From Alphaproteobacteria bacterium (GTDB lineage Bacteria > Pseudomonadota > Alphaproteobacteria > Bin95): a stretch of 64,000 nt of DNA. The notes under the pieces were generated by a model. It searched no databases and was not told the DNA's origin. It saw only the letters and a program-made list of their open reading frames with translations. The position numbers and the translations under genes are program-made. The stretch covers positions 192,001 to 256,000 of the forward strand of contig OZ219785.1 in assembly GCA_964291285.2 (NCBI GenBank), given 5' to 3'. This document shows, piece by piece, positions 1 through 16,402 of this stretch; positions within the stretch are counted from its first letter, which is position 1, and every line of letters begins with the position of its first letter.

Positions 1-1
1 A

Positions 2-1156
2 TTGCGTCGGCAGGTCGGGCATGCCGCGATACGCGTAGCTGCGCTGCCGGTCGCGGCAGGGGCCGCATTCCCGCATGAGGGGTTCGGGCTCGCGGACGCC
101 GCAGCGGGGACAGAGGCCGGCAGACAGGCGCTCGCGGGTCACGGCATGGTAGCGGCGGCGGTCGGTGGCGAGGCGCGCCTCGCGGCATTCCGTGCATGAG
201 TCGAACCCGGGGTCGGGAGGCCGCTTCGTGCAATGGATGCAAACGCCCCGGGCGCGGGCCTCGGCGATCCTGCGATGCCATCTCGCGCGCTCGGCGGTGC
301 GGCGCTCGTCCCGGCAGGGCCGGCACATTGTCGAGCCCTCGGCGGGAGAAGCCTTGCCGCAGCGGATGCAGAGCCCCCGGGAGGCCCGGGCGAGCACCCT
401 GCGGTTGTACCCGTCCAGCGAGACGGCAAGACAGGCGTCGCAGGCCAGGCGCCCGGGCGCGGCGGGGTGGCGGCCGCAATCGAGGCACAATCCGACGGCG
501 CGGCGGGCGTCCCGGCGGCGTCTGGCGGCCTGCTTGTCCCGTTCGGCGGGAAGCGGCCGGCAGTCCGGGCAGCGGCGGCTGCCGGGAACCGGCGGGGCCT
601 CGCCGCACTCGATGCAGAGCGAGCGGTCGGCCTGCCGGCGGCGGCGGTCGATCCGGGCGCGGTATATCCGCCGGCGCGCGGCGAGGCAGTCGTCGCAGCA
701 CGCATTGCCTTCGGCGGGCGCCCCGTTCCCGCACTGCACGCAGAGGCCGGCCTGGCGCCGTTCATCCTTGCGCTCCTGCAGGCGCCGGCGGCCGAGCGCG
801 AGATGTTTTTCGTTGCAGGCCTCGCAGAGCCGCCGGCGGGGCTTTTCGGGCGTGGCGCCGCATTCCTGACAGAGGCCGCGGTTGCTCCGAAGCAGGCGGC
901 GTTTGCGGGCGGCCTTGCGGTCGCTGGCGCGGCGGCGCTCCTGGCATTCCGGGCAGTATTTCGCCCCGTCGGGCGGGGAAACCTTGCCACAGTTCAAACA
1001 GAGGCCGCGCGCCGCAAGCCGGTCCCGGGCGCGCGAGGCGTTGGACCGCCGGGCGGGCGCGGCCCCGGTGGCGTTGCCGGAGCTGGCCCTGCAGCAATGG
1101 AAGCCCGCTGCTTCGGCGGGCGGATGGATATGAGCGGAAGCCGGCATGCCGGACAT
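2..1156 (-). CDS. Tandem C4 zinc-finger / Arg-rich helix repeat protein (8 repeats; runs off the window edge)
   Basis: Manual translation, absent from the ORF track because there is no stop in the window. ATG at 1156 follows an AGGAGA RBS. 385 open codons contain 8 x (G/S)(L/V)C-x2-C-x11-C-x2-C separated by 20-24 aa Arg-rich linkers. Confidence 0.85.
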   Translation of the reverse strand, partial: MSGMPASAHIHPPAEAAGFHCCRASSGNATGAAPARRSNASRARDRLAARGLCLNCGKVSPPDGAKYCPECQERRRASDRKAARKRRLLRSNRGLCQECGATPEKPRRRLCEACNEKHLALGRRRLQERKDERRQAGLCVQCGNGAPAEGNACCDDCLAARRRIYRARIDRRRRQADRSLCIECGEAPPVPGSRRCPDCRPLPAERDKQAARRRRDARRAVGLCLDCGRHPAAPGRLACDACLAVSLDGYNRRVLARASRGLCIRCGKASPAEGSTMCRPCRDERRTAERARWHRRIAEARARGVCIHCTKRPPDPGFDSCTECREARLATDRRRYHAVTRERLSAGLCPRCGVREPEPLMRECGPCRDRQRSYAYRGMPDLPTQ

Positions 1157-1723
1157 GGGCGACGTCTCCTGCTGGCGGGACGGGCGCGGGAGCCGGTCGC
1201 ACGGACGCCCCCCGCAGTAATCGCCCCGACAACCCTTTCCCGACCTTCCGGCCGGACAGGCCGGACGGCGGCGTTCGCCGGGAACGGCCGGCGGCGGCGC
1301 CCGGCCGGCCGCGCGGGAGAGGATTGCGACGGTCCGGACGGGGTGGGGACCGGGACGCCGGAAACCGGTCCGCCGCCGTTTCGGCTGCCCCGGCGGCCGG
1401 CGCTCCGGGCCGCCGCACCGGGAACCGCCGGCGGGCGTTCCCCCGGGGTCGCGCACGGAGGGGCGGAAACGGCGCCGGCTGAGAACCGCGTCGGCTTCGC
1501 CGATCCGGTTACCGGGTTACCGCTCGACCTGCCCTGTCCGCTCGCCAGGGCGGCGAAACGGGGCCGGGGCGGGCATGAACGCCTCGCCCTTCGACATCGG
1601 ATGCGGGCCGGCGGCCGGTCCCGACCGGCCGGGAAGAGCGCGTGCGCCGCCTGCTGCCGAACCGGTTTGAGGCGCGCGGCCAATTTGTGTTACCTTCCGC
1701 GGCCGGAACAGGGAGATTTAGCC

Positions 1724-2371
1724 ATGGCGAAACCCGGAATCACGCTTTCACCGCGCAAAGCGCACGGCGACCGTTGGGAATGGTGGAACCCCGATTTCGT
1801 CTTCGATTTTGTCGGTACCGATGGCAACGACGAGCTGTTCGGCGGCTACGGCGACGACACCATGCGCGGCGCCAAGGGCGACGACATGCTGTACGGCGGC
1901 CGGGGCGACGACCTTCTGAAGGGCGGCAATGGCGACGACACGCTGAAAGGCAGCTACGGCGACGACACGCTGAAAGGCGGCCGGGGCGACGACGACTTGG
2001 TGGACACGTCCGGCAACAATTTCATGTACGGCGGCCGGGGCGACGACTTCATGGTCGCCGGCGATGGCGACGATGTGCTCAAGGGCGGCCGGGACGACGA
2101 CATCCTGTACAGCGGCGGCGGTGCGGACCGTTTCGTTTTCGGCAGGAACAGCGGTTTCGACTCGGTCATGGACTATGAAGACGGCAAGGACAAGATCGTC
2201 TTCGAAGGCGGCATCCAGTTCTCGGACCTGATCTTCACTTACGAAGAGCAGCCCAGCGGCAGCCGCGCCGTAGCCAAAATCGAAGACGCTTCCGGTGAAT
2301 GGGCAGTTCATTTTGACAATTATGTAAAGGAAGAGGAATTGACCGAGTCCGATTTCGAGTTCCTCGGCTAA
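1724..2371 (+). CDS. RTX/hemolysin-type calcium-binding repeat protein
   Basis: GGxGDDxLx nonapeptide repeats; GGGAGA RBS before ATG 1724. The track ORF 233..2371 is over-extended. Confidence 0.9.
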   Translation: MAKPGITLSPRKAHGDRWEWWNPDFVFDFVGTDGNDELFGGYGDDTMRGAKGDDMLYGGRGDDLLKGGNGDDTLKGSYGDDTLKGGRGDDDLVDTSGNNFMYGGRGDDFMVAGDGDDVLKGGRDDDILYSGGGADRFVFGRNSGFDSVMDYEDGKDKIVFEGGIQFSDLIFTYEEQPSGSRAVAKIEDASGEWAVHFDNYVKEEELTESDFEFLG

Positions 2372-2419
2372 CCCGGAACCCAGAACGCTTTTTCCAACCA
2401 TCTTCAAGGGAAACAAACC

Positions 2420-3262
2420 ATGGCACGACCCGGAAAAACCATTACCGGAACCCCCGGTCATGATTATGCAGGACCTTGGCACTATCCGCAGGATGGCGGA
2501 CCGCGCTACCGCTCAAAGGACTTGGAGGGAACGAACCGCGACGACACGATCCGAGGCTTGGAGGGGCATGATCGAATCGTCGGCAAGCGTGGCGACGACA
2601 CGCTGTACGGCGGCGGCGGCGTGGATCTGATCCTGGGCAACGCTGGCCACGACACGTTGTACGGCGGCAACGGCGACGACCACCTGTTAGGCGATTCCGG
2701 CAACGACACGCTGAAAGGCGGCAACGGCGACGACGACATGTGGGGCGGCACGGGCCGGGACTCTCTTTACGGCGACGCCGGCCACGACGACATGTGGGGC
2801 AACGAGGGCCGGGACTCTCTTTACGGCGGCGACGGCGACGATGACATGGACGGCGGCGGCGACGACGACCTTCTGAAGGGCGGCGACGGAAGAGACACGC
2901 TCTGGGGCGGCAAGGGCAACGACACGCTCGACGGCGGCGACGGCGACGACTTCCTGTGGGGCAACAACGGCAACGATACCTTCATCTTCAGCGGGAACAG
3001 CGGAAAGGACGTCATCCGTGACTACGATGCGGATTCGGACACAATCCAGATCAAGGGAGTCTCCGGGATCGAAGATTCTGGCGACCTCTATCGCTTTTCT
3101 ACCAAGCTAGGCAACGACGATGCTGTAATAATCTACAAAGCAACAGAGGTTAATGAAGACAATGATGGCAAAGACGCCAGGGACAACGCAACGTGGGAAA
3201 TCAAGCTTCTTGATACGCAGTTGTCCGACGTTGATCTGTCCGACTTCGATATCATCGCCTGA
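2420..3262 (+). CDS. RTX/hemolysin-type calcium-binding repeat protein (paralog)
   Basis: Many GGxGxDxLx repeats; similar N-terminus (MARPGKTI vs MAKPGITL) and an SDF-containing C-terminus. Confidence 0.9.
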   Translation: MARPGKTITGTPGHDYAGPWHYPQDGGPRYRSKDLEGTNRDDTIRGLEGHDRIVGKRGDDTLYGGGGVDLILGNAGHDTLYGGNGDDHLLGDSGNDTLKGGNGDDDMWGGTGRDSLYGDAGHDDMWGNEGRDSLYGGDGDDDMDGGGDDDLLKGGDGRDTLWGGKGNDTLDGGDGDDFLWGNNGNDTFIFSGNSGKDVIRDYDADSDTIQIKGVSGIEDSGDLYRFSTKLGNDDAVIIYKATEVNEDNDGKDARDNATWEIKLLDTQLSDVDLSDFDIIA

Positions 3263-3456
3263 CGGTTAAAACTTGCCGCCCCGGCGTTCGGGGCGCGTAT
3301 CTGCTTGCATAAGCGGCGCGGGGCCGTCGCCGGGCCGCGGCGAACGCTCGCAAGCTCGCTACACGCCGACCCCGGCGAGACCTTATCGCGCCTGAATGGA
3401 TACGGCAGAATCGAGCGCCCAACGCGCTACGCGCGGCGCTTGCCGAAACTGCCGGT

Positions 3457-3485
3457 GGTTCCCCCGCCCACGCGGGGATAGCCCC
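3457..3485 (+). repeat. Single type I-E-like CRISPR repeat (orphan, no array)
   Basis: GGTTCCCCCGCCCACGCGGGGATAGCCCC, 29 nt with a CCCCGC/GCGGGG hairpin. No second good copy and no cas genes in the window. Confidence 0.55.
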
Positions 3486-3884
3486 CGCCGTGCATCTGCG
3501 AATCATGACATTCGGTCTTGGTGTCTCCCGCACGAACGGCCGGCCTGCATCGCCCGGGTCACGCCGCAACGCATTCCTTCTCCGTCTCCGGGGCCTCGTC
3601 GCCATATGCCGGCCTCCGGAACGGTCCCGCGCGCTGTCTCTGTCCATGGAATCTGCTCTCATATGGTACCAGCAGGGCATGTTTTATACCACCGGCCACA
3701 GATAAGAACCGATTAGCCTCTCTCGGCGGAGATTACCTCTTGCAGTAGGAGGCCTCGGCTCAGGGGGCGAGCTGCGGAGGGAGGCTCTGCTATAGGTTCC
3801 AATCAACGACCGTTGGTATTACCTACATACCCATAGAATCACGATGGACTGTAATACCAGCGGCGCTGATTGCTGACTCATGAC

Positions 3885-5580
3885 CCTAAATCCGGCAGTT
3901 GAGTATGGCTTGGCCTTGCCGAATCCCTTGTAGTCTTCGGGTATGAGCGGCTTTTCAGGGGCCGAAGAGGCTCACCCTGTGGGTGATTATCCTGGCGCTG
4001 TGCGGGATGTCGCCCGAGCGTTCGTGAAGGTGGACACCTTCGGCGGCGCGGTTCATGTGGAATGGGACCCTGATGCGGCGGTGACGCCGCTGGGGCATCT
4101 GGCGTTTTTCGCGGAATAGCTGAAGGTGAGCGGTCGCTTTGACGCTTTGGTTGCGGACTGCCCGCTGCGGTACACGAGCCCGAACGCGCCGTCGAAGCGG
4201 GATGTCCTGGGGACGGTTCTTCTGTCGGTTCTGGCGGGGCAGTCTCGCTATGCGCACATCACGTCGCTGCGCGGCGACGGGGTGAACCCTGCGCTGCTGG
4301 GTATGGACAAGGTTGCGAGCGAGGATTCGGTGCGGCGCGGTCTGGAGCGGATCGGTGCGGATGTCGGCACATCGTGGCTTCAGGGCCATCTGGACGAGGT
4401 GGTCCGTCCGCTGCTGAGGGAGCCGTGGGTTCTGGACTGCGACACGACGATCAAGGCGCTTTACGGTCGTCAGGAGGGAGCGGTTGTGAGCTACAACCCG
4501 AAGAAGCCGGGCCGCCCCTCGCATGCCTGCCATGCGTTCCTGATGGCGGGCACGCGGCTTGTTCCGGATGTCGAGGTGGCGCCGGGCAACCATCACCATT
4601 CGAGGCGCGCGGCGCCGTCCTTGTGGGCGTTGCTCGACCGTCTTGGGCGGGATCGCTGGCCGCGTCTGGTGCGGGGCGACAAGGACTGGGGCAGCGAGGC
4701 CAACATGGCTTCGTGCGAGGCTGCGGGTCCGGACTATCTGTTCAAGCTGCGCCTGACGAAGGGGGCGCGCCTGCTTGCCGAGCGGCTGATGGCGCGGGAC
4801 GGCCGGGAGGATGCGGGCCAGGGCTGGTCGGGGATCGGGGCCGATCTGCGTCTGCAGGGCTGGAGCCGGACGCGCCGGGTTGTGGTGCTGCGCCGGCGGC
4901 TTCCTGCGACGCTGGCGCTGACGCGTGGCGACAAGGCCCGGGGCGAGCTGTTCCGGACCGGGGCGCAGCCCGGCACCGGGGTGTGGGAGTTCGCGGTGCT
5001 GGCGACCTCGCTGGACCTGGAGATACGCTCGCTGGCCCAGCTCTACCGCGACCGGGCGGACGCGGAGAACGGCTTCGACGAGTTGAAGAACCAGTGGGGC
5101 TGGGGCGGCTTCACCACGCGCGACCTGACGCGCTGCCGGCACATGGCCCGGCTGGTCGCGCTCATCTACAACTGGTGGAGCCTGTTCGTGCGCCTCGCCG
5201 ACCCCGACCATCACCGCGAGGCGATCACCAGCCGGCCGCTGCTCCTGCACGGGGTTGCCCGCCAGACCCACCACGCCGGCCAGACCCGGCTGACGGTGAC
5301 CTCCCATCACGGGCGTCGCAAGACGGTGATGGCGGCGCTGCGCCGGATCGCCGGCTTCTTCCGGTCGCTGACGCAAACTGCGGAGCAGTTGAGCGCCGGG
5401 GATCGCTGGCGCCGCATCCTCGCCGAGGCGCTCAGGAAATACCTCCATAGCCGCGAACCGGGGCGTCAACCCTGGCTGCCGCCACCCAGGGCCGCGACCA
5501 CGTGCTGAAATCCACGCCCAAATCCGACCGTTCACACTACCCCGAGACAGCGATCAAGCCCGTCAACTGCCGGATTTAGG
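3885..5580 (+). mobile_element. IS1380-family insertion sequence, full length (~1.7 kb)
   Basis: Perfect 18-bp terminal inverted repeats CCTAAATCCGGCAGTTGA (3885-3902 / 5563-5580) enclosing a DDE transposase; no target duplication evident. Confidence 0.85.
3943..5508 (+). pseudogene. IS1380-family DDE transposase with premature TAG
   Basis: The frame from ATG 3943 (VDTFGGAVHVEWDPDAAVTPLG) hits TAG at 4117-4119, then continues in frame (LDCDTT, VRGD, RADAENGFDELK). Confidence 0.8.
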
Positions 5581-5651
5581 ATCAACTGAAAAACCGCAAC
5601 CGGCCGAAAAATGTCAGCGAATAGGCGCGCTCTGTAACCGTCGCTAACACT

Positions 5652-6427
5652 GGGAGGATGCAGGCCAGGGCTGGTCGGGGATCGGGGCCGATCTGCGTCT
5701 GCAGGGCTGGAGCCGGACGCGCCGGGTTGTGGTGCTGCGCCGGCGGCTTCGCGGGCCTCTGGCGCTGACGCGCCGCGATGACGGCCAGGGCGATCTGTTC
5801 TGGGTCGATGGGCAGCCTGACGCCAAGCTGTGGGAGTTTGCGATCCTCGCCACCTCGCTGGACCTGGAGGTGCGCTCGCTGGCCCAGCTCTACCGCGACC
5901 GGGCGGACGCGGAGAACGGCTTCGACGAGTTGAAGAACCAGTGGGGCTGGGGCGGCTTCACCACGCGCGACCTGACGCGCTGCCGGCACATGGCCCGGCT
6001 GGTCGCGCTCATCTACAACTGGTGGAGCCTGTTCGTGCGCCTCGCCGACCCCGACCATCACCGCGAGGCGATCACCAGCCGGCCGCTGCTCCTGCACGGG
6101 GTTGCCCGCCAGACCCACCACGCCGGCCAGACCCGGCTGACGGTGACCTCCCATCACGGGCGTCGCAAGACGGTGATGGCGGCGCTGCGCCGGATCGCCG
6201 GCTTCTTCCGGTCGCTGACGCAAACTGCGGAGCAGTTGAGCACCGGGGACCGCTGGCGCCGGATCCTCGCCGAGGCGCTCAGGAAATACCTCCATGGCCG
6301 CGAACCGGGGCGTCAACCCTGGCTGCCGCCACCCAGGACCGCGCCCACAGGCTGAAATCCACGCCCAAATCCCACCGTTCACACTACCCCGAGACAGCGA
6401 TCAAGCCCGTCAAATGCCGGATTTAGG
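5652..6427 (+). mobile_element. 5'-truncated second IS1380 copy
   Basis: Near-identical to 4805-5580; transposase C-terminal part ends at 6355; right inverted repeat TCAAATGCCGGATTTAGG ends at 6427. Confidence 0.85.
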
Positions 6428-7210
6428 ATAAATCGCGGTCGTCCCCTGCTTCCGGTCCGTGGACTCTTTCGCGATTCCGGGGGAATCGACCAAGAACACC
6501 TTGTCCTTATCCTTCCACCGGTTGCACCATTGCTTTGCGCGCCACTGCAATTCGCAATTGCAGTTGACCATGAAGAATGTTCGAGGCGATACGTACCGCC
6601 AACGAACCGCACAGGTTCTGCTACCGAGCCCTTCCTCAAGCCGTCGTTGCCAGTGGCATACCTCCTCGGCATGGCCTCCTTTACGTCGGCTGTTGTGATG
6701 GTAGAGGATTACGGGCCTCCCTCCTTCTGATAACGCCGCTATTTCGCATTCGGGAATTCCCTTTCCGTGCCTTCTGCGACCGGGTCGAAACGACTCCTGC
6801 TCAATGAGGCCGTTGTCGGGATCGGCAAAGACCAAATCGCAATCTTGCAAATCCCTCCTGGTTTTACGAAACCACTTCTTCCTCCATGTCCCTTGTTCGT
6901 GCTGCTTGCATCCGTGGAAATCCAATTTCCCATCCGAAAAGACGGCATCCGCGAGAAGATCGGAGCTTTCAACTGCCCGGACGCTGCGATTTCCAGATTT
7001 TACGAGCCTGTAGAGCCTGTCGAATGTCTCCCTATCGCAATCTCGCCATTTCTTCGCGTTGCATAGATAACCTGTGTGTTTTCCGTCTTTCTTCTCTTCT
7101 TCGTCGGGGAAAAGATACCAGGCCACGCCCAGCTTCGATCCGTAGGAAAGCGCGCGAAGCAGACTGTATTTTGCGTAGTCGCCGATGTCTCCCGTATATC
7201 TGTCCTGCAT
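6410..7210 (-). CDS. Conserved hypothetical protein, possibly SAM-methyltransferase (RlmJ-like) fold
   Basis: 266-aa ORF with lower GC; motifs RYTGDIGDYAK and DLVFADPDNG. The last codons and stop come from the IS1380 inverted repeat. Confidence 0.65.
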   Translation of the reverse strand: MQDRYTGDIGDYAKYSLLRALSYGSKLGVAWYLFPDEEEKKDGKHTGYLCNAKKWRDCDRETFDRLYRLVKSGNRSVRAVESSDLLADAVFSDGKLDFHGCKQHEQGTWRKKWFRKTRRDLQDCDLVFADPDNGLIEQESFRPGRRRHGKGIPECEIAALSEGGRPVILYHHNSRRKGGHAEEVCHWQRRLEEGLGSRTCAVRWRYVSPRTFFMVNCNCELQWRAKQWCNRWKDKDKVFLVDSPGIAKESTDRKQGTTAIYPKSGI

Positions 7211-7524
7211 TCGCGGCTTCCACCCCTCACTCCAGTCCCATCAGGCTGCGGGCGAAGTCGCGGGGGGCGAGGCGCGAGGCGTATTCTACACCGTGTTCGA
7301 GACGCTGAAGTCAAGTCTGGATACACCCGCCGCTGCGATGGCCCGAAACCTCTAACCCGGCGCGCGGCGTCATGCAATGCAGAAATTTGCGCTGCGGTGC
7401 GGCTGTGGTGCTTTTTCGGCAGCAGGAGATGGGGGTTCGCGTCCGGTCGGTGTTGTGCTGTGGCGTGTTGAGGCGAGGGCGGCGGTTGATTTTCGAGCGC
7501 GAGCGGAACCGCACAGCGGCATTG

Positions 7525-8715
7525 TCAGGAATCGGTCGCGGTTGCCCGGCCGTCACCGGCGCTGTCCGGTTCGCCCGTCATGGTCCGCGCCATCGCCTTG
7601 CCCACCCGCTCGGCCGCAGCTTCGATGTCGCGGTCGGCGAGATGGGCGTAGCGCAGCGTCATGCGCACATCGGAATGGCCGAGCAGGCGGGAGACGACCG
7701 GGACCGGCACGCCGTTCATGACGGCATGGCTGGCCATGGTATGGCGCAGGTCATGAAGGCGCACATCCCCGATGCCGGCTTCGCGTCTGACGCGGTACCA
7801 GAGCGGCAGGTCGGGGCTGCGCGGGCGGGCGGGGTCGCGCGGCGAGGGAAACACGAACGCGCTGCCCGTGCGCGGCTGCCGGTCGAGGATGCGCCGCGCC
7901 CGGCTGCCGAGCGGGACCGTCCTCGGCCCCGTCTTGCTGTCCGAGAGGGCCAGCATGTCCTCGCGAACTTCCGACCATCGCAGGCCCGTGATCTCGCCCC
8001 TGCGGCAACCGGTGAACAGCAGCAGCCGGACGATGTCGGCCTGCTGCCTGTCGCGGCTTCGGGTCTGCGCGTCCAGAACACTGTGCAGGCGTGCGAGTTC
8101 CTCGCGGGACAGGAACCGCATGAGCGCCGGGCGGCGGTTCCTTCTTGTGCCCTTGGCCGGATTGACTTCGATGTGGCCGCAGGCGGCGGCGAAGGTCATG
8201 ATCTGCTGCAGGATGTCGAGGGCGCGGTTGGCGCCGCCGGGCGCGGTCCGGCTGTAGCGGTCGAACCACTGCCGGACATGGGCCGGGGAAATGCGGTCGA
8301 GCGGCTTCGAGCCGAATGCCGGAAGCAATTGTCGCCGGAGTATCCCGGACGCGGTTTGCTGGCCCGACGGCTTGCAGCGGTTGAAATGGGCCTCCTTCCA
8401 CGGGCCGGCGACGAAATCCCGGAACAGCGGGACCGCGCCGGGCGGTTTGGCAGTCTCCTCCGGCTGCGGGGCCGCCTGGCGTTCAAGAGCCTCCCGGCGG
8501 GCTTCGGCGGCGCTCTTCACGCCGACCGGGCCGAGCGAGACGCGCCTGGTGCGCCCGCCGCTGTCGAGCAGCAGCACCCAGCTGCGCCCGCCGGCGGGCC
8601 GCACCCGGACGCCGAGGCCGGCGATGCGCGTGTCCCGGACCGTATATTCCCGCTCGCGGGGGCGGAGACGGGCGACGGCGGCGTCGGTCAGCTTCATCCG
8701 TTCCCGGCCCGCCAT
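7525..8715 (-). CDS. Tyrosine recombinase/integrase (downstream partner, copy 1)
   Basis: N-terminal arm-binding-type domain (LTDAAV..D..GLGVRV..GGRSW); catalytic motifs TGCRRGE, DSKTG, HDLRH, LGH..TLRY. Confidence 0.93.
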   Translation of the reverse strand: MAGRERMKLTDAAVARLRPREREYTVRDTRIAGLGVRVRPAGGRSWVLLLDSGGRTRRVSLGPVGVKSAAEARREALERQAAPQPEETAKPPGAVPLFRDFVAGPWKEAHFNRCKPSGQQTASGILRRQLLPAFGSKPLDRISPAHVRQWFDRYSRTAPGGANRALDILQQIMTFAAACGHIEVNPAKGTRRNRRPALMRFLSREELARLHSVLDAQTRSRDRQQADIVRLLLFTGCRRGEITGLRWSEVREDMLALSDSKTGPRTVPLGSRARRILDRQPRTGSAFVFPSPRDPARPRSPDLPLWYRVRREAGIGDVRLHDLRHTMASHAVMNGVPVPVVSRLLGHSDVRMTLRYAHLADRDIEAAAERVGKAMARTMTGEPDSAGDGRATATDS

Positions 8716-9839
8716 CAGTCTGCCTCCAGCACGGCGCCGACCGTCTCGACAGCGTCCTGCACCATGGCGTCGGCGACATGGGTATATTTCAGCGTGGTTT
8801 CCGGCCTGCGGTGGCCCAGCAACCGGCCGATGGCGAGCACCGTCACGCCCTGCCGGAGGGCAAGGCTCGCATGCGTATGGCGCAAATCGTGAAGGCGGGC
8901 GTCCTCCAGGTCTGCCTCGGCGCGGACCCTGCGCCAGAAGTGGTCCAGCCAGCTTCCGCTCCGGGGCCGGTCGCTATCCGGGGCCGGGAACACATGGCGG
9001 CCTTCCCGCTCAAGGCCGTCGAGAACGGCCCGGGCCGGCTCCGACAGCCAGACTGTCCTCGGCCCCGTCTTGGAGTCGCGAAGAAACAGGCGGCCTTCCC
9101 GGTAGTCGGACCATTGCAGGGTGAGGATCTCGCCCTTGCGGCAGCCGGTCAGCAGCAGCAGGCGGATGACGGCGACATGCTGCGGCCAGCGGGCCTCATG
9201 CGCCTTGAGCCGCGCGGACAGGCGGCGGATTTCCTCGTCCGGGAGGAACCGCTCGCGGCCCTTGCGGCGGTAGCGGCGGATGCCCCGGCAGGGGTTGGAC
9301 CCTTCCGGGCGCAGGCCCATGGCCTCCGCCTCCCTCATGATGACGGACAGCACCGGCATCGACCGGTCCGCCGCCACCGGCGTCGCGCGCAGGCGGGCGA
9401 ACCAGTTCCTTACCTCCTGCCGGTCGATGGCGGCAACCGGACGCCCGGCGAAATGCGGCAGAAGCCGGTTGCGCAGATAGCTGCGGTTGACAGCGAGCGT
9501 TCCGGCCTTCCAGAGCCTTGCATGGCGCTCGAACACGGTTTCGGCGACGGCTTCGAAGAGCGTCTCGTCCGGCGTGAGCGGCGCCTCCCCGCCGCGCCTG
9601 ATCGCGGCAAGCATGTCCGCAGCCGCAGACCGCGCGTCCGTGACGCTCATCGACCCGGCGTCGCCGACGATCTTCCAGATACGCACGCCGCGATGCTGGC
9701 AGTGGATGAAGAACTGCTTGCGGCCCGAGGGCGACACACGGACGCCGAACCCCCTGAGCCTGCCGTCGCGGACCTCGCGGACGGACCTGCGGGGCTTGAG
9801 CGCCTTCACGCGCGCCTCGGTAAGGGTAGTCTTCGCCAT
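8715..9839 (-). CDS. Tyrosine recombinase/integrase (upstream partner, copy 1)
   Basis: ATG 9839 after GGGAGA; TGCRKGE, DSKTG, HDLRH, LGH..TLKY; stop overlaps the next start. Confidence 0.93.
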   Translation of the reverse strand: MAKTTLTEARVKALKPRRSVREVRDGRLRGFGVRVSPSGRKQFFIHCQHRGVRIWKIVGDAGSMSVTDARSAAADMLAAIRRGGEAPLTPDETLFEAVAETVFERHARLWKAGTLAVNRSYLRNRLLPHFAGRPVAAIDRQEVRNWFARLRATPVAADRSMPVLSVIMREAEAMGLRPEGSNPCRGIRRYRRKGRERFLPDEEIRRLSARLKAHEARWPQHVAVIRLLLLTGCRKGEILTLQWSDYREGRLFLRDSKTGPRTVWLSEPARAVLDGLEREGRHVFPAPDSDRPRSGSWLDHFWRRVRAEADLEDARLHDLRHTHASLALRQGVTVLAIGRLLGHRRPETTLKYTHVADAMVQDAVETVGAVLEAD

Positions 9840-9930
9840 TGCGTTTCTCCCGGCTCCGGTTGCAGCCGGGGAACGGGCCCTTGCGACCCGCTTGCCCGAC
9901 CGCTGCATTTCGGGAGAAAAAACGACGCTA

Positions 9931-9943
9931 TGTCAGATAGTTA
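9931..9943 (+). promoter_or_regulatory. IHF-like binding site at element end (copy 1)
   Basis: TGTCAGATAGTTA, one mismatch to WATCARNNNNTTR, with an upstream A-tract. Confidence 0.45.
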
Positions 9944-9948
9944 GCACC

Positions 9949-10479
9949 GGCAGGTGCGGCCGTGGTGTCGTGCGCCTGGCCAGGGCTGAGGTCATAGCGG
10001 ACCGGCAGGCCGCTCACGTCCGACACGGCGTGGATCTTCGTGGTCAGTCCGCCACGGGAACGGCCCATGCAACGATCCGGACCCCCTTTTTTGATCCCGC
10101 CGCATGCTGGTGAACCCGGACGCTCGAACTGTCGATCATCTGCACATTGCCGTCGTGAGCCTCCACCACCGCATCCATCAACTGATCCCAGATGCCCTTC
10201 TTGCGCCAGCGGTTGAACCGGTTGTAGCAGGTCGTACAAGGCCCGTAGTGCTCCGGCAGGTCTCGCCACGGCGCCCCCGCGCGAAGCACCCACAGAATGC
10301 CGTTCAACACCCGCCGGTCGTCAACCCGCGGCACCCCACGGGTCTTGTTCGGCAGCAACGGCTTGATAACCCGCCATTCGAAGTCCGTCAGATCGTACCG
10401 GCCCATGTCCTCGCTCCCTGAAGTTGGGAGCTTGAATCACAGCTTCGCTGAAGAAGAAACCCCTTATGGGTACACGACC
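9949..10479 (-). mobile_element. IS5-family (IS427-like, two-ORF) element remnant
   Basis: orfA 10406..10044 (YDLTDFEW..GAPWRDLP..IDSS); A_AAA_AAG slippery site ~10086-10092 into orfB (GRSRGGLTTKIH..GQAHD), which is cut off at the integrase element end; terminal GGTCGTGTACCCATAA next to TA. Confidence 0.8.
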
Positions 10480-10514
10480 TAATCTCCTGCGCTACGATAA
10501 AGGAACCGTCCACA

Positions 10515-11294
10515 ATGCCTAACGTGACGACAATTCCAGAAAATATAGAATATGTTCTTCTACACGGCTACGGTGCCAATGCGAGTTCCTGGGATTTAGT
10601 TGCCGATAGTATGAATGCAATTCACTCCACTCATGCTATTGAATTGGTTGGATTTGGTCGGAACGTTCCCCCGAAACACTTCGACTACTCTCTGGAGTCT
10701 CAAGCACAGCATCTGGCGCAATTATTCAGAAACAGGAGTAATTCCTACAGGCTAGTAGCTCACTCCCTCGGTGCAGCTATTGCTGTTATTGCGTTGCTGG
10801 ACTTCAAACTAGATCCGAAGGAGTTAATTTTGATTAGTCCGCTGTTAGTTCCCCAAGAGGCCCCGTTTTTTATTAGCATCCATTCTGTGCCCTTGCTGTC
10901 GAATATTGTCACGAACGCACTCCCACCATCTATCTTGGTCGACTCCGTACTAAAAAGAATCTATTTTGATCCCAAAAAGATAAATGCTGATATTCGGTCT
11001 GCCTATATCGGTGATTTCTCAAACACCTATCATCGACGCGCCCTGCGCGAGACAGCACGCACTCTCTATAGATTTGATGCTGAACCATACGTTAGCCGCT
11101 TCAACAATATTGAGACTCCGGTAACGATTATTTGGTCTCGAGAAGACCCACTTCTCCCATTCCGAAATGCCGCTACATTGCAATCCAAAATGCCCAATTC
11201 AAGATTGTTCCCGATAGACAATTGTGGCCATGCTCCACACGAGGAATGTCCTGGCAAATTTGTTGAGGCATTCTTGTCCTCAAGGGAAAAGTAA
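10515..11294 (+). CDS. Alpha/beta-fold hydrolase
   Basis: LLHGYG, AHSLG nucleophile elbow, EDP, GHAPHEE; AT-rich compared with the host. Confidence 0.9.
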   Translation: MPNVTTIPENIEYVLLHGYGANASSWDLVADSMNAIHSTHAIELVGFGRNVPPKHFDYSLESQAQHLAQLFRNRSNSYRLVAHSLGAAIAVIALLDFKLDPKELILISPLLVPQEAPFFISIHSVPLLSNIVTNALPPSILVDSVLKRIYFDPKKINADIRSAYIGDFSNTYHRRALRETARTLYRFDAEPYVSRFNNIETPVTIIWSREDPLLPFRNAATLQSKMPNSRLFPIDNCGHAPHEECPGKFVEAFLSSREK

Positions 11295-11298
11295 ATCA

Positions 11299-12144
11299 AT
11301 GCGGTCTATATTGATCAGCCCCCTTAGAATAGTGTGGCCAATCATTGTATCGTTTGGAGCTATTGCACTGTCTGTTGCTGGTTACGGTGGGCTTCTGCCA
11401 TTTGAGTTGCTGCCATCGGGATCGGAGGTGTCAATAAGTATTTCAATCATATCGGTCCCGGTGGTGATCTCAGAAAATCAAATTTATTTCGGACTAATGT
11501 TAGTGGGATTTATGTTATTGTTGAGTTTACCCTTTCGGAATTAGGCAAAATTGTTTCCATCTCATCTTGATTTGATGCTGGCATTCGATGAAGCAGGTAT
11601 AACAAGGCGGTTGACTGGACAGGGCCTTAATAAGAAGTTGGTATTCCCAATTCATTCAAATTGGACAGAAAGACGGAAACAGTTTCTTGATCAGATTGAC
11701 GATATAATCGCAGGCCAGCTCTCCGGAATTGTGCTATTTGGGACAGAGCCGGATAAAGTATCAGGTACAGGGAGAACCACTTTTTTTGTGGAAAAGGTGG
11801 GAGCGCTTCAAAAATATAGGATTTCATCATCAGACGGATATGTACTACTGAGAAAAGAAGCTGATATCGGAGAAATAGAAACCAAATTTCAGCTAATCAA
11901 TACCATTGATAGTGTATTTTCAATAAACCTTTCACAGATATATTTTTCTTGGAAATTTCATATACATCCTGTTTTTGAGCAATTCTATAGAGTTGATCCA
12001 AAAACGACAAGAAGCCTCTTCAACCTATCTACATCTACAGTTGTTCGTTTCTTTCCAGTAATCGATATTGGCGACACCATTTACTTGGTACAGGATGGAG
12101 AGAAATTTGTGCCAATCTGTTATGGTGTGTATTCCACAAGGTAG
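11299..12144 (+). pseudogene. Hypothetical membrane protein split by a single in-frame TAG (or two small adjacent genes)
   Basis: Hydrophobic ORF 11299-11544 and ORF 11551-12144 share a frame (..PFRN*AKLFPSH..); the second has only a TTG start and no clear RBS. Confidence 0.55.
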
Positions 12145-12339
12145 TCGCTTACCACGCAGTGCGTGGCCCGGAACGTTGAAGGGTGGCGATAGTTGTCAAC
12201 GAAATCGCGCTTGGCAAGTCGTTATGGCGCTGTGCGGCGCGAACCGGTGGAGAGCGCGGGATCGGAGGGGACGAGGGCGTAGCCGGGCGCGGCTGACGGG
12301 GGCCGGATCGGCCCTGTATGTCGCGCGGTCTGCCTGCTG

Positions 12340-13515
12340 TTATCGCCTCCTTGCCATGTCTGCCGGCTCTCCCGTCATCGCTCGCGCCATGGCCGCTCCG
12401 ACCCGCTCCGCAGCCGCCTGGATGTCGCTGTCTGCCAGATGAGCATAGCGCAGGGTCATCTGCACGCTGGAGTGCCCGAGCAGGCGGGAGACGACCGGCA
12501 CCGGTACCCCGTTCATCACGGCATGGCTCGCCATCGTGTGACGAAGGTCATGGAGGCGCACATCTTCAATGCAGGCTTCCTTGCGAACCCGATCCCAGAG
12601 CGGCAGGTGCGGACGGCGCGGGCGGGCCGGGTTGCGCGGCGAGGGAAACACGAATGCGCTCCTGCCGCGCGGCTGCCGGTCGAGGATGCGCCGCGCTCGG
12701 CTGCCGAGCGGAACCGTTCTCGGCCCGGTCTTGGAATCCGTGAGGGCCAGCCCGTCCTCGCGGACTTCCGACCAGCGCAGTCCCAGGATCTCGCCCCTGC
12801 GGCAGCCGGTCAGCAACAGCAGCCGGACGATGTCGGCCTGCTGCCGCGCGCCCTGCCGGGTCTGCGCGTCCAGGGCGGCATGGAGGCGTGCGAGTTCCTC
12901 CCGGGACAGGAACCGGGTGAGCTTCGGCCGCCGGTTTAACGCGATGCCGTCCGTGGAATTACGTTCGATATGGCCGCAGGCGACGGCGAAATTGAGAATC
13001 TGGCGCAGACGGGCCAGGCATTGATTGGCGTTGCCCGGCGCCGTGCGGCTGTATCGCTCGAACCAGCGCCGGATGGCGGCTTCCCCGATGCGGTCGAGCG
13101 GCTTCGATCCGAAGGCCGGCAGAAGCTGGCCCGCCAGTTGGGACCTGGCGACCCTCTGCGTCGAGGGCTTGTAGCCGTCGAAATGCGCCTCCTTCCACGG
13201 GCCCGCGAGGAAATCCCGCAACAGCGGGACCGGCCCCGTGCGCACGGTCTTTCCCACGGGCTCCGGGCTCGCCATGCGGGCATGGCATTCCCTGCGAACC
13301 TCTTCCAGGCCCTTCACCCCGACCGGGCCGAGCGAAACGCGCTTCGTGCGCCCGCCCATGTCCTGCAGCAGCACCCAGCTCTTTCCTCCGGAGGGCCGGA
13401 CGCGGACCCCGAGGCCGGCCGCGCGCGTGTCCCAAACCGTGTATTCCCGCTTGCGGGGGCGGAGCCGGGCGGCGGCGGCGTCGGTCAGTTTTTTCCGTTC
13501 CCTGCCCGCCATCAT
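12340..13515 (-). CDS. Tyrosine recombinase/integrase (downstream partner, copy 2)
   Basis: Homolog of 7525..8715; all catalytic motifs intact. Confidence 0.93.
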   Translation of the reverse strand: MMAGRERKKLTDAAAARLRPRKREYTVWDTRAAGLGVRVRPSGGKSWVLLQDMGGRTKRVSLGPVGVKGLEEVRRECHARMASPEPVGKTVRTGPVPLLRDFLAGPWKEAHFDGYKPSTQRVARSQLAGQLLPAFGSKPLDRIGEAAIRRWFERYSRTAPGNANQCLARLRQILNFAVACGHIERNSTDGIALNRRPKLTRFLSREELARLHAALDAQTRQGARQQADIVRLLLLTGCRRGEILGLRWSEVREDGLALTDSKTGPRTVPLGSRARRILDRQPRGRSAFVFPSPRNPARPRRPHLPLWDRVRKEACIEDVRLHDLRHTMASHAVMNGVPVPVVSRLLGHSSVQMTLRYAHLADSDIQAAAERVGAAMARAMTGEPADMARRR

Positions 13516-14636
13516 TTTCCCTCCAGCGCAGCGCCGATCGTCTCGGCGGCCTCATGCACCATGGAGTCGGCAAGGTGGATGTATTTCAGCGTCGTCTCCG
13601 GCTTGCGGTGGCCGAGCAGGCGGCCGATGGCGAGCACGGTTTCGCCTTGCCGGAGCGCCAGGCTGGCTACGGTATGGCGCAGGTCGTGAAGGTGAACGTC
13701 CTCCAGTTCCGCCTCGGCGCGGACCCCGGCCCAGAAATATTCCAGCCAGGTCGCGCTCCGCGGCCGGCTGGCCCCCGATACGGGGAATATCCACCGGTTC
13801 TTGCGCGCAAGGCCGTCGAGGACGGCGCGGGCCGGTTCGGAGAGCCACACGGTCCTGGGTCCCGTCTTGCTATCGCGGAGAAACAGGTGGCCTTCCCGGT
13901 AGTCCCGCCATTGCAGGGTGAGGATCTCGCTCTTGCGGCAGCCTGTGAGCAGCAGCAGGCGGATGACGGCGACCTGCTGCGGCCAGCGGGTCTCGTGCGC
14001 CCGGAGCCTCGCGGACAGGCGGCGGATCTCCTCGTCGGAGAGGAACCGCTCGCGGCCCTTGCGGCGGTAGCGCTTTATCCCCGGGCAGGGGTTGGAGCCC
14101 TCGGGGCGCATGCCCATCCGTTCCGCCTCCCTCATGATGACGGAGAGGATGGGCATGGACCTGTCGGCCGCCACCGGCGTCGCGCGCAGGCGGGCAAACC
14201 AGTTCCTCACCTCCTGCCGGTCGATGTCGGCAATCGGACGCCCCGCGAAATGCGGCAGGATGCGGCTGCGAAGATAGCTGCGGTTCACGCGGAGCGTTCC
14301 GGGCTTCCAGACTCCCTCGTGACGCCGGAACGCGGTCTTGGCGACGGCTTCGAAGAGTGTCTCGTCGGGCAAAGGCGGCGCCTCCTCGCCTCGCCTGATG
14401 GCGTTGAGCATGTCGCCCGCAACGGACCGCGCCTCGGCGACGCCCAGGCTCCCGGCGTCGCCGACGATCTTCCAGATGCGCTCGCCGCGATGCTGACAGT
14501 GGATGAAGAACTGCTTGCGCCCCGAAGGCGACATACGGACGCCGAAGCCCCTGAGCTCGCCGTCGCGGACCTCGCGGACGGACTTGCGGGGTTTGAGGGC
14601 CTTCACGCGCGCCTCGGTAAGGGTGGTTCCCGGCAT
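13512..14636 (-). CDS. Tyrosine recombinase/integrase (upstream partner, copy 2)
   Basis: Homolog of 8715..9839 with the same length (1125 nt); catalytic motifs intact. Confidence 0.93.
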   Translation of the reverse strand: MPGTTLTEARVKALKPRKSVREVRDGELRGFGVRMSPSGRKQFFIHCQHRGERIWKIVGDAGSLGVAEARSVAGDMLNAIRRGEEAPPLPDETLFEAVAKTAFRRHEGVWKPGTLRVNRSYLRSRILPHFAGRPIADIDRQEVRNWFARLRATPVAADRSMPILSVIMREAERMGMRPEGSNPCPGIKRYRRKGRERFLSDEEIRRLSARLRAHETRWPQQVAVIRLLLLTGCRKSEILTLQWRDYREGHLFLRDSKTGPRTVWLSEPARAVLDGLARKNRWIFPVSGASRPRSATWLEYFWAGVRAEAELEDVHLHDLRHTVASLALRQGETVLAIGRLLGHRKPETTLKYIHLADSMVHEAAETIGAALEGK

Positions 14637-14718
14637 AGAATTTCTCCCGGCTCCGGTTGCAGCCAGGGAACTGATATGCTTCCCTAGCTGCAAATTTTCG
14701 GGAGAAAAAACGACGCTA

Positions 14719-14731
14719 TATCAGATAGTTA
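14719..14731 (+). promoter_or_regulatory. IHF-like binding site at element end (copy 2)
   Basis: TATCAGATAGTTA is an exact match to WATCARNNNNTTR, with an upstream A6 tract. Confidence 0.55.
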
Positions 14732-14942
14732 GCACCCAAGGTGCGCCGCCGCGGTGTTCGTCGAAGCCGGCGCTCGCCGGGTCCCTGTCGGCGCTGTAAC
14801 TCACGGGCGCGAAATCGGGAAAGAAACCGACCCCGAGCACGCGCCCCTTTTCCGTGCAGGCGGCAGGGGCCTCCGCCGCTGCGAACAGCGCCGCGAGGCC
14901 GAACGCACCCGCAAGAAGCCGCCTGCCGGATCGCGCCGTCAT
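14721..14942 (-). pseudogene. Truncated amino-acid ABC substrate-binding protein (N-terminus only)
   Basis: Signal peptide, then VLGVGFFPDFAPVSY..FDEHRG (SBP family 3-like start), reading straight into the element end and stopping. Confidence 0.6.
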
Positions 14943-15103
14943 CGCAGAACCCGCCTTTCCCGCCGCTCCCCGTCTCCGGCGGCGCAACCGGTTTCTATTC
15001 CATCCGCGCCCGGCCTGCCACGGCCCTTTGCCGCCGCGGAGACCGTGAGCCTTTCTTTCGGGCTTTGATTTCCTTCGCTCCCCCGGATATGCCGACGCTC
15101 GTC

Positions 15104-16402
15104 ATGCTTCGCTTTTCCCTGCGAACCCTCGGCCTGTCGCTCGCACTCGCCTCGGCGGTCGCGGCGCCGGCGGGATCGATTGCCGAACGTAACCGGAATG
15201 AGGCGCAGTGGCTGCGTCTCGCCGTCGAACGGCTGTGCCCGCAGCCCACACTGTCCGGCCTCGACGCGCAGACCGCCCTGCCCGGCAGCTGGCTGCTGGA
15301 CGAGACCCGCCGGCCCGATGACGGGGTCCCCCGGCGAATCACCATCCGCCTGCTGCTGCCGGGGGCGGACGAACTCACCGTCGAGCGGCGGCAATTCGGC
15401 GGCAGGCTGCGCCAGTTCCTGGTTTCCTACGCTGCGCATGACGGGGAAGGCGCGCAGCCATCCGTTCAGGCCATCGCCGACGGAGGATGCGTAATCCGGT
15501 CCGGCCGGGCGATCCGGACGGAGGACGGAGGCTGGCGGTATCTCGACCAGTTCGAAGGCGATCTCCGGACGCTGAAATGGGCCGAGACCCTGCAGGCCCC
15601 GTGGCCCGAGGGAACGGACCCCGGTGGCGTCCGGGTCGCCCTCGTGGACTCGGGACTGGCCTACGACCTGCCGCTGTTCCGCGACCGGCTGGCCCGCGAC
15701 AGCGAGGGCATGCCGCTCGGCTACGACTTTTGGGACCTCGATCCCTGGCCCTATGACGGCGACACGTCGCGCGGTCCCTTCCTTCCGATCCGGCACGGCA
15801 CTGCGGTCGCATCCGTGCTCGCGCGCGAGGCGCCGGCAGCCGCGCTCATCCCGTTCCGCTATCCGCGCCCCGACATGACCCGCATGGCCGCGCTGGTCCG
15901 CCGCGCCGCCGATGCAGGCGCCCGCATCCTCGCCATGCCGCTCGGCAGCCGCAATCCGGGGGACTGGCGCGGGTTCGAGCGCGCGCTCGGCAGGCACGAC
16001 ATGCTGGCCGTCGTCTCGGCGGGGAATAACGGCCGCGATATCGACAGGGGGAGCCCGGTCTATCCGGCCGCGTCCACGCTTGAAAACATCCTCGTTGTCA
16101 CTTCGGCCGACGGCTTCGGGCGCCTCGCCCGGGGGTCGAACTGGGGCCGGGAGAGCGTGGATGTCATGCTGCCGGCGGAGAATGTCGGGATCGTCGATTT
16201 TCGCGGCGCTTCGGGGACCGCTTCCGGCTCCAGCTACGCGGTGCCGCGCCTTGCCGCCCTTGCGGCGAGGCTGCTGGCGCGGGAGCCGGGACTGACTGCG
16301 GCCCGGCTCAAGGCCCGCATCCTGGCCCGCGCGACGCCGTCTCCCTATGAGCGGGAGGGCGTCGTGGCCGCCGGCTGGATTCCCGACCCGCTTTCGGACT
16401 GA
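15104..16402 (+). CDS. Secreted subtilisin-like S8 peptidase with unknown N-terminal domain
   Basis: Signal peptide; VALVDSG, HGTAVA, SAGN, GSSYAVP. Start could be 15089. Confidence 0.8.
   Translation: MLRFSLRTLGLSLALASAVAAPAGSIAERNRNEAQWLRLAVERLCPQPTLSGLDAQTALPGSWLLDETRRPDDGVPRRITIRLLLPGADELTVERRQFGGRLRQFLVSYAAHDGEGAQPSVQAIADGGCVIRSGRAIRTEDGGWRYLDQFEGDLRTLKWAETLQAPWPEGTDPGGVRVALVDSGLAYDLPLFRDRLARDSEGMPLGYDFWDLDPWPYDGDTSRGPFLPIRHGTAVASVLAREAPAAALIPFRYPRPDMTRMAALVRRAADAGARILAMPLGSRNPGDWRGFERALGRHDMLAVVSAGNNGRDIDRGSPVYPAASTLENILVVTSADGFGRLARGSNWGRESVDVMLPAENVGIVDFRGASGTASGSSYAVPRLAALAARLLAREPGLTAARLKARILARATPSPYEREGVVAAGWIPDPLSD

Follow-up and report, generated by a model that had tools for sequence, protein, structure and literature searches.

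What does a pair of adjacent tyrosine recombinase genes, found twice within a few kilobases, belong to? The question is raised by a 64,000-nt stretch of an alphaproteobacterial genome (positions 192,001 to 256,000 of contig OZ219785.1, assembly GCA_964291285.2; hereafter the window), which carries two such pairs, copy A and copy B. Arm-type integrases are textbook cases of one enzyme acting on one fixed site, and the original prediction for this locus, made without database searches, took each pair for a minimal transposon of about 2.6 kb, similar in behavior to an insertion sequence (IS). Our analysis of the 6.1-Mb genome, which comprises 5 contigs with the window on contig C1, makes it likely that each pair is instead a recombination module forming the left end of larger integrative elements that belong to one family. 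These elements probably combine a heteromeric integrase pair with IS-like spread.

The gene pairs themselves are as predicted. In a region of ~70% GC, interrupted by a low-GC stretch at 10.5-12.1 kb, four minus-strand open reading frames (ORFs) form two pairs, at 8715-9908 and 7525-8715 for copy A and at 13512-14693 and 12340-13515 for copy B, and all four products pass the Pfam cutoffs for Arm-DNA-bind_3 (PF13356), Phage_int_M/SAM_3 (PF22022), and Phage_integrase (PF00589). The stop codon of the first gene, Int1, overlaps the start of the second, Int2; the overlap measures 1 nt for copy A and 4 nt for copy B. The two proteins of copy A are paralogs (155/374 positions identical, 41%; E 4e-69), and the R-K-HxxR-H-Y catalytic residues are found in both Int1 and Int2, which bears out the claim of two coupled, paralogous recombinases with full motifs. 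Copies A and B are ~80% identical in DNA and remain in register at a spacing of 4797 bp. The 41-bp block that had been proposed as their common end is identical at 40 of 41 positions, where 100 shuffles gave an expectation of 0 matches. Upstream alignment and a conserved N-terminus, MAKTTLTEARVKALKP, place the real Int1 start at window position 9839 in copy A and 14636 in copy B, ~69 nt within the ORF, and the block is therefore upstream non-coding promoter or arm DNA rather than coding sequence. Its similarity is beyond chance, but the boundary of the element lies further out, at an ACACC core.

Copy A forms the left end of an element of 13.6 kb (element A), complete and recently moved, that is nested in an IS5. 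A second copy (A2) lies on a different replicon, at C2:434351-447930, and is 99.96-100% identical from -19 to +13564; element A is flanked by the direct repeat ACACCACGGC(C). Its right attachment site (attR) is located at C1:188383-188397, ~3.6 kb ahead of the window start, and window positions 1-9968 are therefore entirely element A. Neither the proposed content of only two genes in ~2.6 kb nor the proposed left boundary at 7333 survives this comparison, as the latter is not an element end and no copy has a right end directly after Int2. The further claim that each copy abuts a broken gene stands for A, which sits in a split IS5-family transposase gene whose intact IS5 counterparts represent the empty site, but a break in the neighbor of copy B is unsupported. 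Intact IS5 reads GCACG-ACACCACGGCC-GCCGGTGCC and the left attachment site (attL) of A reads GCACG-ACACCACGGCC-GCACCTGCC, the IS5 target core for element A being GCACGACACCACGGCCGCCGGTGCC. A and A2, which are 99.96% identical over 13.6 kb, occupy unrelated targets that have ACACCACGGC in common, a coincidence that is unlikely unless core similarity guides target choice.

The insertion also differs between samples. In two other samples of the same organism, contigs run straight from L066:766 to L066:15180 with 0 mismatches, and a 14,413-bp IS5::A block (L066:767-15179; in the window, up to 10478) is absent from them; the joint leaves 3 ambiguous bases, which fits a small IS target duplication. 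Among the matches listed for the run that best matches the window there is no such joint, and one contig extends ~25 nt into the IS5 end. (Twelve metagenome runs hold 0.05-0.10 of the sampled words, and run X1 gave mostly matches to repeats at 90-99% identity.) The IS5::A insertion is therefore polymorphic and recent. What the comparison records is the presence or absence of the whole IS5::A block, not the excision of A alone. This pattern, the position of copy A within IS5, and the IS flanks common to several copies would suit a reading in which two independent single-integrase islands came to lie in tandem by chance, or in which the pairs are passive DNA carried along by IS5 or homologous recombination. 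We regard that reading as exceedingly improbable: the genes overlap with no att site between them, their order is kept across proteobacterial classes, and the flanks of A and A2 differ, with each one corresponding exactly, at the ACACC core, to a paralogous target that is uninterrupted.

A search with copy A finds 17 near-full-length copies of the module in the genome (76-100% DNA identity) and many fragments, and all module copies have a sharp 5′ boundary 9-24 nt ahead of GGTGCTAAC. Homology between subfamilies fades at the Int2 stop; within subfamilies it continues, with 99.6-99.8% identity between the elements at C3:1616806 and C5:400414 across the whole 8.2-kb C3 element (the C5 copy is 10.1 kb owing to an extra internal segment) and 3-8 kb in common in other groups. 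At 23 attL sites the left boundary takes the same form, ACACC, N5-9, (C)GCACC, N3-4, and GGTGCTAACTATCTGACA, where ACACC is exact in 18 and one base off in 5; the bases to its left are unconserved in this genome and in related loci. A loosened attL pattern produced many false sites in this GC-rich genome, and its counts were left unused. Because many copies reside in repeats, the genome also holds paralogous targets without an insertion. We located these for 7 of the 9 flanks tested, and attL equals the empty site through an ACACC-type pentamer (ACTCC and ACACA in two of the empty targets) plus 5-8 nt, after which the two diverge.

Using the right flank of the empty site as a probe, we located attR for 7 of 12 attL sites. 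A conserved right end, which reads ...TGTCAGATAGTGCCCTAAC, ~25 nt, TTCGAGATTT/ACACC, occurs 14 times in the genome and pairs three more attL sites. The ten complete elements measure 8.2, 8.2, 10.1, 10.1, 11.1, 13.6, 13.6, 21.6, 36.4, and 38.8 kb (the 21.6-kb element sits at C3:123454), and each is flanked by a 10-13-bp direct repeat starting with ACACC. These distances bear directly on the proposal of an autonomous ~2.6-kb transposon made up of two integrase genes and short ends only. Such an element would fit the observation that, at the integrase end, only the 2.4-kb module is common to all copies, and copy B has no recognizable cargo boundary or attR. We nevertheless hold it to be very unlikely, since near-identical copies share 8-13.6 kb and not 2.4 kb, attR lies 8-39 kb from attL in all 10 two-ended elements, and no core repeat is present where homology between subfamilies fades.

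The sites that these elements enter are varied. We counted by eye 18 distinct flanks among the 23 attL sites, a result that speaks against a single fixed att site; the repeated targets include three IS4/5-type transposase genes, a SLOG-domain gene, and one unclassified repeat, and unique DNA is targeted as well. The predicted lack of a tRNA att site is thus upheld. Low target specificity and multiple copies are upheld too, but insertion is not random, being site-specific recombination at ACACC plus 5-8 nt. The scenario that would have spoken against an IS-like element, in which such pairs always lie within larger islands at fixed att sites, proves half right: islands are seen for every copy with both ends found, but the fixed sites are not.

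Besides the IS5 core, other targets read TCGA-ACACCCCTGAAC-GGCTC, CTTCC-ACACCGCGCC-GGTCTT, and CTCTT-ACACCACGGC-TCGGG. The uninterrupted target already holds the repeat, and insertion is therefore conservative site-specific recombination between attP and attB. The flanking repeats are mismatched in 4 of the 10 elements, and core positions 6-8 are involved in three of these, two of which have a single mismatch there. The cores of the C3:1616829 and C5:400404 elements read ACACC-AG(C/A)GAG and ACACC-CG(A/G)GAG, the repeats of C3:1579048 are mismatched at positions 2, 6, and 8, and attR of C4:518077 has ACGCC for ACACC. Direct repeats with such mismatches are what conservative site-specific recombination leaves behind when the overlap lies just right of ACACC. 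Closely related copies occupy targets with the same or nearly the same bases after ACACC. At C3:1579048, attL carries the local sequence and attR has ACACCCCTGAG, which is similar to ACACCCCTGAAC, the core of another target; this suggests that the core in this attR was carried over from a previous site.

The arrangement at C3:1579048 resembles the ‘footprint’ rule of SE elements as given in excerpts of one account (PMC10214605), and it could also point to a copy-out route of the SE/Tn554 kind, in which attL x attR gives a circular copy with no empty donor site. This route would explain the high copy number, and it is consistent with many copies per genome and with near-identical ones on different replicons. 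We consider it unlikely all the same. The family has none of tfp, srap, and tnpC, the helper genes of SE and Tn554, since one integrase gene overlaps the other and no conserved sequence comes after the pair, and plain excision and reintegration after replication or transfer would raise copy number too.

The complete elements have a common layout: attL, Int1, Int2, variable cargo of 5-35 kb, and attR. Eight of the 10 have, ahead of attR, at least one NikA-like ribbon-helix-helix (RHH) gene and a conserved arm of ~330 bp. The arm is non-coding and AT-richer, and the genes with NikA-like RHH domains that precede it are small. What these eight have in common is limited to the left module of 2.4 kb and ~500 bp of the right end; the two A-type copies have only the left module in common with them and possess a different right end. 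An inverted 11-nt repeat, ACTATCTGACA, is found in the left and right arms (it is absent from the right arm of A). Cargo genes include those for a Slam-type assembly protein and a porin in the C3:1616829 element, and for a NUDIX/NrtR regulator, ARPP-1, an ADP-ribosylglycohydrolase, and an IS4-type transposase in the C4:518077 element, where the first three (L068:1947-4918) resemble an NAD/ADP-ribose-based conflict system. The annotation of element A includes a gene for a single-stranded DNA-binding protein (SSB) in addition to the cargo within the window (Table 1). Two ORFs of that cargo, of 712 and 280 residues, carry the calcium-binding nonapeptide repeats of RTX proteins, and the region at 233-3262 has many repeat-related joints in the contigs of other runs.

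The pairing of Int1 with Int2 is conserved within this genome and well beyond it. By tblastn the genome holds ~45 loci with Int1 followed by Int2, in four subfamilies that are 73-100%, ~60%, ~43%, and ~36% identical to copy A; ~41 of the loci belong to the first three, and the four at ~36% have a 74-nt intergenic gap. In other genomes, 52 loci hold close relatives of Int1 (metagenome-assembled Alphaproteobacteria, including Defluviicoccus and Rhodospirillaceae, and two records labelled Chloroflexota/Dehalococcoidia), and Int2 directly follows in 48 of them. The left-end motif is likewise present in 48 of the 52, the rest being cut by contig ends, and ACACC in 45 of these 48. Identity across related loci is 70-84% for Int1 and 60-82% for Int2. 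Across 80 Int1 and 75 Int2 sequences, all distinct, the six catalytic residues (R-K-H-R-H/W-Y) are intact, barring 1-2 gaps where alignments end. A tree separates Int1 from Int2 as two clades (support 0.93), with 3 of 155 sequences misplaced, and these three are probably members of the 36% subfamily. Two of the close relatives (L025 and L048; 74-75% Int1 identity) lie on the contigs labelled Dehalococcoidia/Chloroflexota, an occurrence that reflects either cross-phylum transfer or mis-binning.

Plasmids of cultured bacteria carry the pair as well. Among 29 plasmid records that match Int1, 15 have Int2 immediately downstream of it, with hosts that include Shewanella oneidensis MR-1 (on its megaplasmid), S. 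baltica, Vibrio, Aliivibrio, Photobacterium, Polymorphobacter, Aurantiacibacter, Paracoccus, Tritonibacter, and Leisingera, and the genes are annotated merely as ‘site-specific integrase’. The MR-1 megaplasmid and a Polymorphobacter plasmid show the same gene order with 4-nt overlaps; in the former, the first gene scores 255 bits as Int1 against 156, and the second 239 bits as Int2 against 147. At both of these plasmid pairs (32496-34993 on the MR-1 megaplasmid) the neighbors are toxin-antitoxin genes (PemK/MazF, VapBC, HipA), and the left-end motif of the window family is unrecognizable. A strict form of that motif occurs 19 times in this genome and in 0 of 400 other genomes sampled evenly from the class, a count that does not show absence; the close family thus has a patchy distribution, whereas the module as such is old.

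How the two proteins might work together can be considered at two levels. That both paralogs are used jointly, as first proposed, is probable. A more specific mechanism, which we put forward tentatively and hold to be possible rather than probable, is an obligate hetero-tetramer of P4-type integrases with ACACC as a 5-bp anchor, in which homology in the overlap picks the target and inheritance of the core lets specificity drift. In the explanation that we favor overall, Int1 and Int2, catalytically complete and translationally coupled, would act jointly as a XerC/XerD-type 2+2 hetero-tetramer on attP x attB, one paralog reading the invariant ACACC half-site and the other the element's GCACC/GGTGC half-site, and their arm-binding N-domains would hold the ACTATCTGACA-type repeats of both arms. 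Strands would be exchanged at both edges of an overlap of 6-8 bp immediately right of ACACC, and partial homology in this overlap would steer target choice. The core of each new target would be partly inherited, so that specificity could drift, and this would open up many sites to the element, most of them harmless positions within IS copies. The RHH protein may serve as a directionality factor or as an oriT-binding mobilization helper. According to this model the joined ends (attP) would read ...TTCGTGTT/TTCGAGATTT-ACACC-N6-GCACC....

The predicted Int1-Int2 complex scores 0.39, against 0.00 for the best of 3 controls, and three prediction runs agree in at least 83% of contacts with a partner predicted local distance difference test (pLDDT) value of at least 77. 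The mark that it passes is reached by 58 of 80 solved complexes and by 2 of 110 mismatched pairs; at scores of 0.60 or below, it is reached by only 7 of the 80 and by both of the passing mismatches. Tyrosine recombinase assemblies have been solved, so the pass may reflect likeness to them. A division of labor between the two proteins, in which one would serve integration and the other excision or resolution, or one would be an architectural arm-binding partner, with no single hetero-tetramer, would accommodate this weak complex prediction. It would also accommodate the working of element A with a different right arm and the greater divergence of Int2 relative to Int1 across loci. We think such a division improbable, in that every catalytic residue is kept in both proteins, in subfamilies down to ~36% identity, and that gene order and the stop/start overlap are constant. 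If one partner were purely architectural, its catalytic residues should have been lost, as is the case for Tfp and GinC in the account excerpted from PMC10214605.

Several observations weigh against the interpretation of the pairs as jointly acting, left-end modules of mobile elements. The complex prediction gives weak support to an association of Int1 with Int2 and is blind to the distinction between hetero- and homo-oligomers, and the requirement for both integrases is one that we infer. Thirteen of the 23 attL sites, that of copy B included, have no identifiable attR, and for 6 of the 14 right ends the same contig and strand offer no attL as a partner, so that rearrangement or decay must have affected many copies. 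One position of one IS family is shared by several copies, and this may partly reflect the spread of IS::element composites instead of independent insertions. Element A has a different right arm, which lacks the conserved arm and the TGTCAGATAGT repeat; it moved precisely at least once despite this, and the conserved arm is therefore not strictly required. No circle junction or precise excision product of A was seen among the joints listed, which come from assembled contigs that drop rare forms and leave 99 more joints outside the list, so that this says nothing about absence. The NikA-like Pfam matches score 40.6 and 26.6 bits against a cutoff of 27, the second falling just under it, and no relaxase was seen in the three annotated elements (A, C3:1616829, and C4:518077).

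The unpaired right ends and scattered cores suggest replicon rearrangement by recombination between element copies. Cores such as ACACCGGTG border a left end on C3 and, on C1 and C4, right ends.

Known systems resemble this family in part. With the P4-type and IntSXT-type integrases of genomic islands, of integrative elements that are conjugative (ICEs), and of those that are mobilizable (IMEs), Int1 and Int2 share the combination of Arm-DNA-bind_3, SAM-like core-binding, and catalytic domains, and P4-type islands also have the integrase gene beside attL and a short direct repeat at their ends that is present in the target. To our knowledge, known members rely on a single integrase that acts at a fixed site, most often in a tRNA or tmRNA gene; here, in contrast, two paralogs are always paired, the core is ACACC plus a few bases, and there are tens of copies per genome. 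Tn916 and CTnDOT likewise have a tyrosine integrase with relaxed target choice and tolerate overlap mismatches, and conjugative transposons of this type use a single integrase. XerC and XerD, which function in chromosome dimer resolution and are used by integrative mobile elements exploiting Xer (IMEX), are two paralogous active tyrosine recombinases on different half-sites of one core, as in our working model. Xer proteins are host housekeeping enzymes without an arm-binding domain, and the Int proteins score 41-73 bits against NCBIfam XerC/XerD models, far below the cutoffs of 330-335.

A ‘XerCD-like pair’ has been proposed for ICEPmu1/ICEMh1 of Pasteurellaceae at tRNA-Leu, according to excerpts of PMC6861422; set beside Int1/Int2 by description only, these are 80-kb conjugative elements with a fixed tRNA-Leu site and an 11-13-bp repeat. 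Tn554 needs two tyrosine recombinases, makes no target duplication, and carries along a 6-bp footprint (excerpts of PMC10214605). Unlike the equal-sized paralogs described here (374 and 396 residues, many sites), it has TnpA, a large TnpB of ~630 residues, a small TnpC, and one preferred site, and no conserved third ORF follows Int2. SE, GInt, and RIT elements resemble our family, as far as the excerpted descriptions go, in having multi-recombinase modules at the left end of islands of 7-16 kb or larger. SEs require intA-tfp-intB-srap, a synteny found only in Gammaproteobacteria at 1-2 copies per replicon, and they place the target's 6 bp beside attL and the element's beside attR (the same excerpts of PMC10214605). 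The stop/start overlap of Int1 and Int2 means that there is no tfp between them, and nothing conserved lies past Int2. GInt is composed of ginA-ginB-ginC-ginD, with a third protein that has no catalytic motif (excerpts of PMC5385486), and here there are two genes only, both catalytically complete. RIT elements have three adjacent tyrosine recombinase genes; in our family there are two, and subfamily homology stops at the Int2 stop. The mismatch with RIT and Tn554 that had been pointed out is confirmed, and SE and GInt fail as well. A search of full-text literature, with subscription journals and supplementary files outside its scope, found no published description of a paired P4-type integrase module or of an ACACC target, and the excerpts of the tyrosine recombinase classification of Smyshlyaev et al. 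(PMC8138268) contain no mention of tandem or paired enzymes.

Copy B is best read as an intact pair with its attL, whose right part was lost or replaced or whose right end is unrecognized. Nothing convincing as an attR was found within 86 kb downstream when its own core and both kinds of right end were used as probes, and an empty site for it was not found in relatives, same-genus genomes matching only from about window position 15057 onward. Downstream of B come, in order, ~200 bp of GC-rich DNA, 1.6 kb of low-GC DNA, the IS5::A block, ~410 bp, and a third, truncated pair. The low-GC segment is foreign-looking, with the IS5 inserted at its edge, and may be what remains of the cargo of B. The third pair (L066:1-423; C1:186323-187722), ~4.3 kb before the window start and ~410 bp past the IS5::A block, is 5′-truncated and retains Int2 together with only the last ~85 residues of Int1, with ~72% identity to copy A; three modules are thus present within 20 kb in one orientation. 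On the attL side of B, the ORF at 14741-16402 had been taken for a substrate-binding protein gene. It encodes a C-terminal subtilase domain, and Pfam supports the earlier assignment in no flank ORF. In one relative, the gene neighboring copy B maps to another replicon in this genome.

Table 1. Features of the window in and around the two integrase gene pairs.
Feature	Window positions	Strand	Basis
Element A, part within the window	1-9968	-	homology to C2 copy and flanking direct repeat
Cargo of element A within the window	233-7210	.	Pfam, ORF choice
RTX-repeat protein ORFs, cargo of A	233-2371, 2420-3262		Pfam
IS transposase gene and fragment of another, cargo of A	4126-5508 (gene), 5729-6355 (fragment)		Pfam
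ORF without assigned function, cargo of A	6410-7210		
Int2 of copy A, paralog of Int1, 396 residues	7525-8715	-	Pfam; start overlaps Int1 stop by 1 nt
Int1 of copy A, P4-type tyrosine integrase, 374 residues	8715-9839	-	Pfam, catalytic residues, start alignment
Left arm of A: GCACC-N4-GGTGCTAACTATCTGACA, then leader; includes 41-bp block 9908-9948	9840-9957	-	conserved in 23 attL sites of this genome and 48/52 related loci
attL core of A, ACACCACGGCC, common to IS5 target and attR	9958-9968	-	comparison with 6 uninterrupted IS5 copies
5′ part of IS5-family element split by element A	9969-10478	-	comparison with intact IS5 copies
Low-GC segment (38-46% GC): alpha/beta-hydrolase gene 10515-11294 (+), family-less ORF 11551-12144 (+)	10490-12130	.	
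Int2 of copy B	12340-13515	-	77% identical to Int2 of A; 4-nt overlap with Int1
Int1 of copy B	13512-14636	-	81% identical to Int1 of A
attL of copy B: ACACC (14753-14757), 8-nt spacer, GCACC, then GGTGCTAACTATCTGATA; includes 41-bp block 14696-14736	14696-14757	-	

A conserved arm-type pair that works on a 5-bp anchor and multiplies like an IS with kilobases of cargo would widen the view of integrase-based elements. If the more specific hetero-tetramer mechanism is true, a site-specific integrase system would have the spread of an insertion sequence, with ~45 loci in one genome and arbitrary cargo of 5-35 kb, and the family would represent an undescribed, widespread class of ‘homology-steered’ integrative transposon that is found even on the megaplasmid of S. 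oneidensis MR-1. The cargo seen includes outer-membrane proteins, NAD/ADP-ribose-type conflict genes, and RTX-repeat proteins, and the module could mark islands that are missed by tRNA-based island finders. A two-protein recombinase with a short, partly steerable target would be of interest as a scaffold for genome engineering, and the presence of the module in culturable, genetically tractable hosts (Shewanella, Vibrio, Paracoccus) makes it directly testable. For the bacteria that harbor these elements, their activity would explain part of the heavy repeat load and of the shuffling of replicons.

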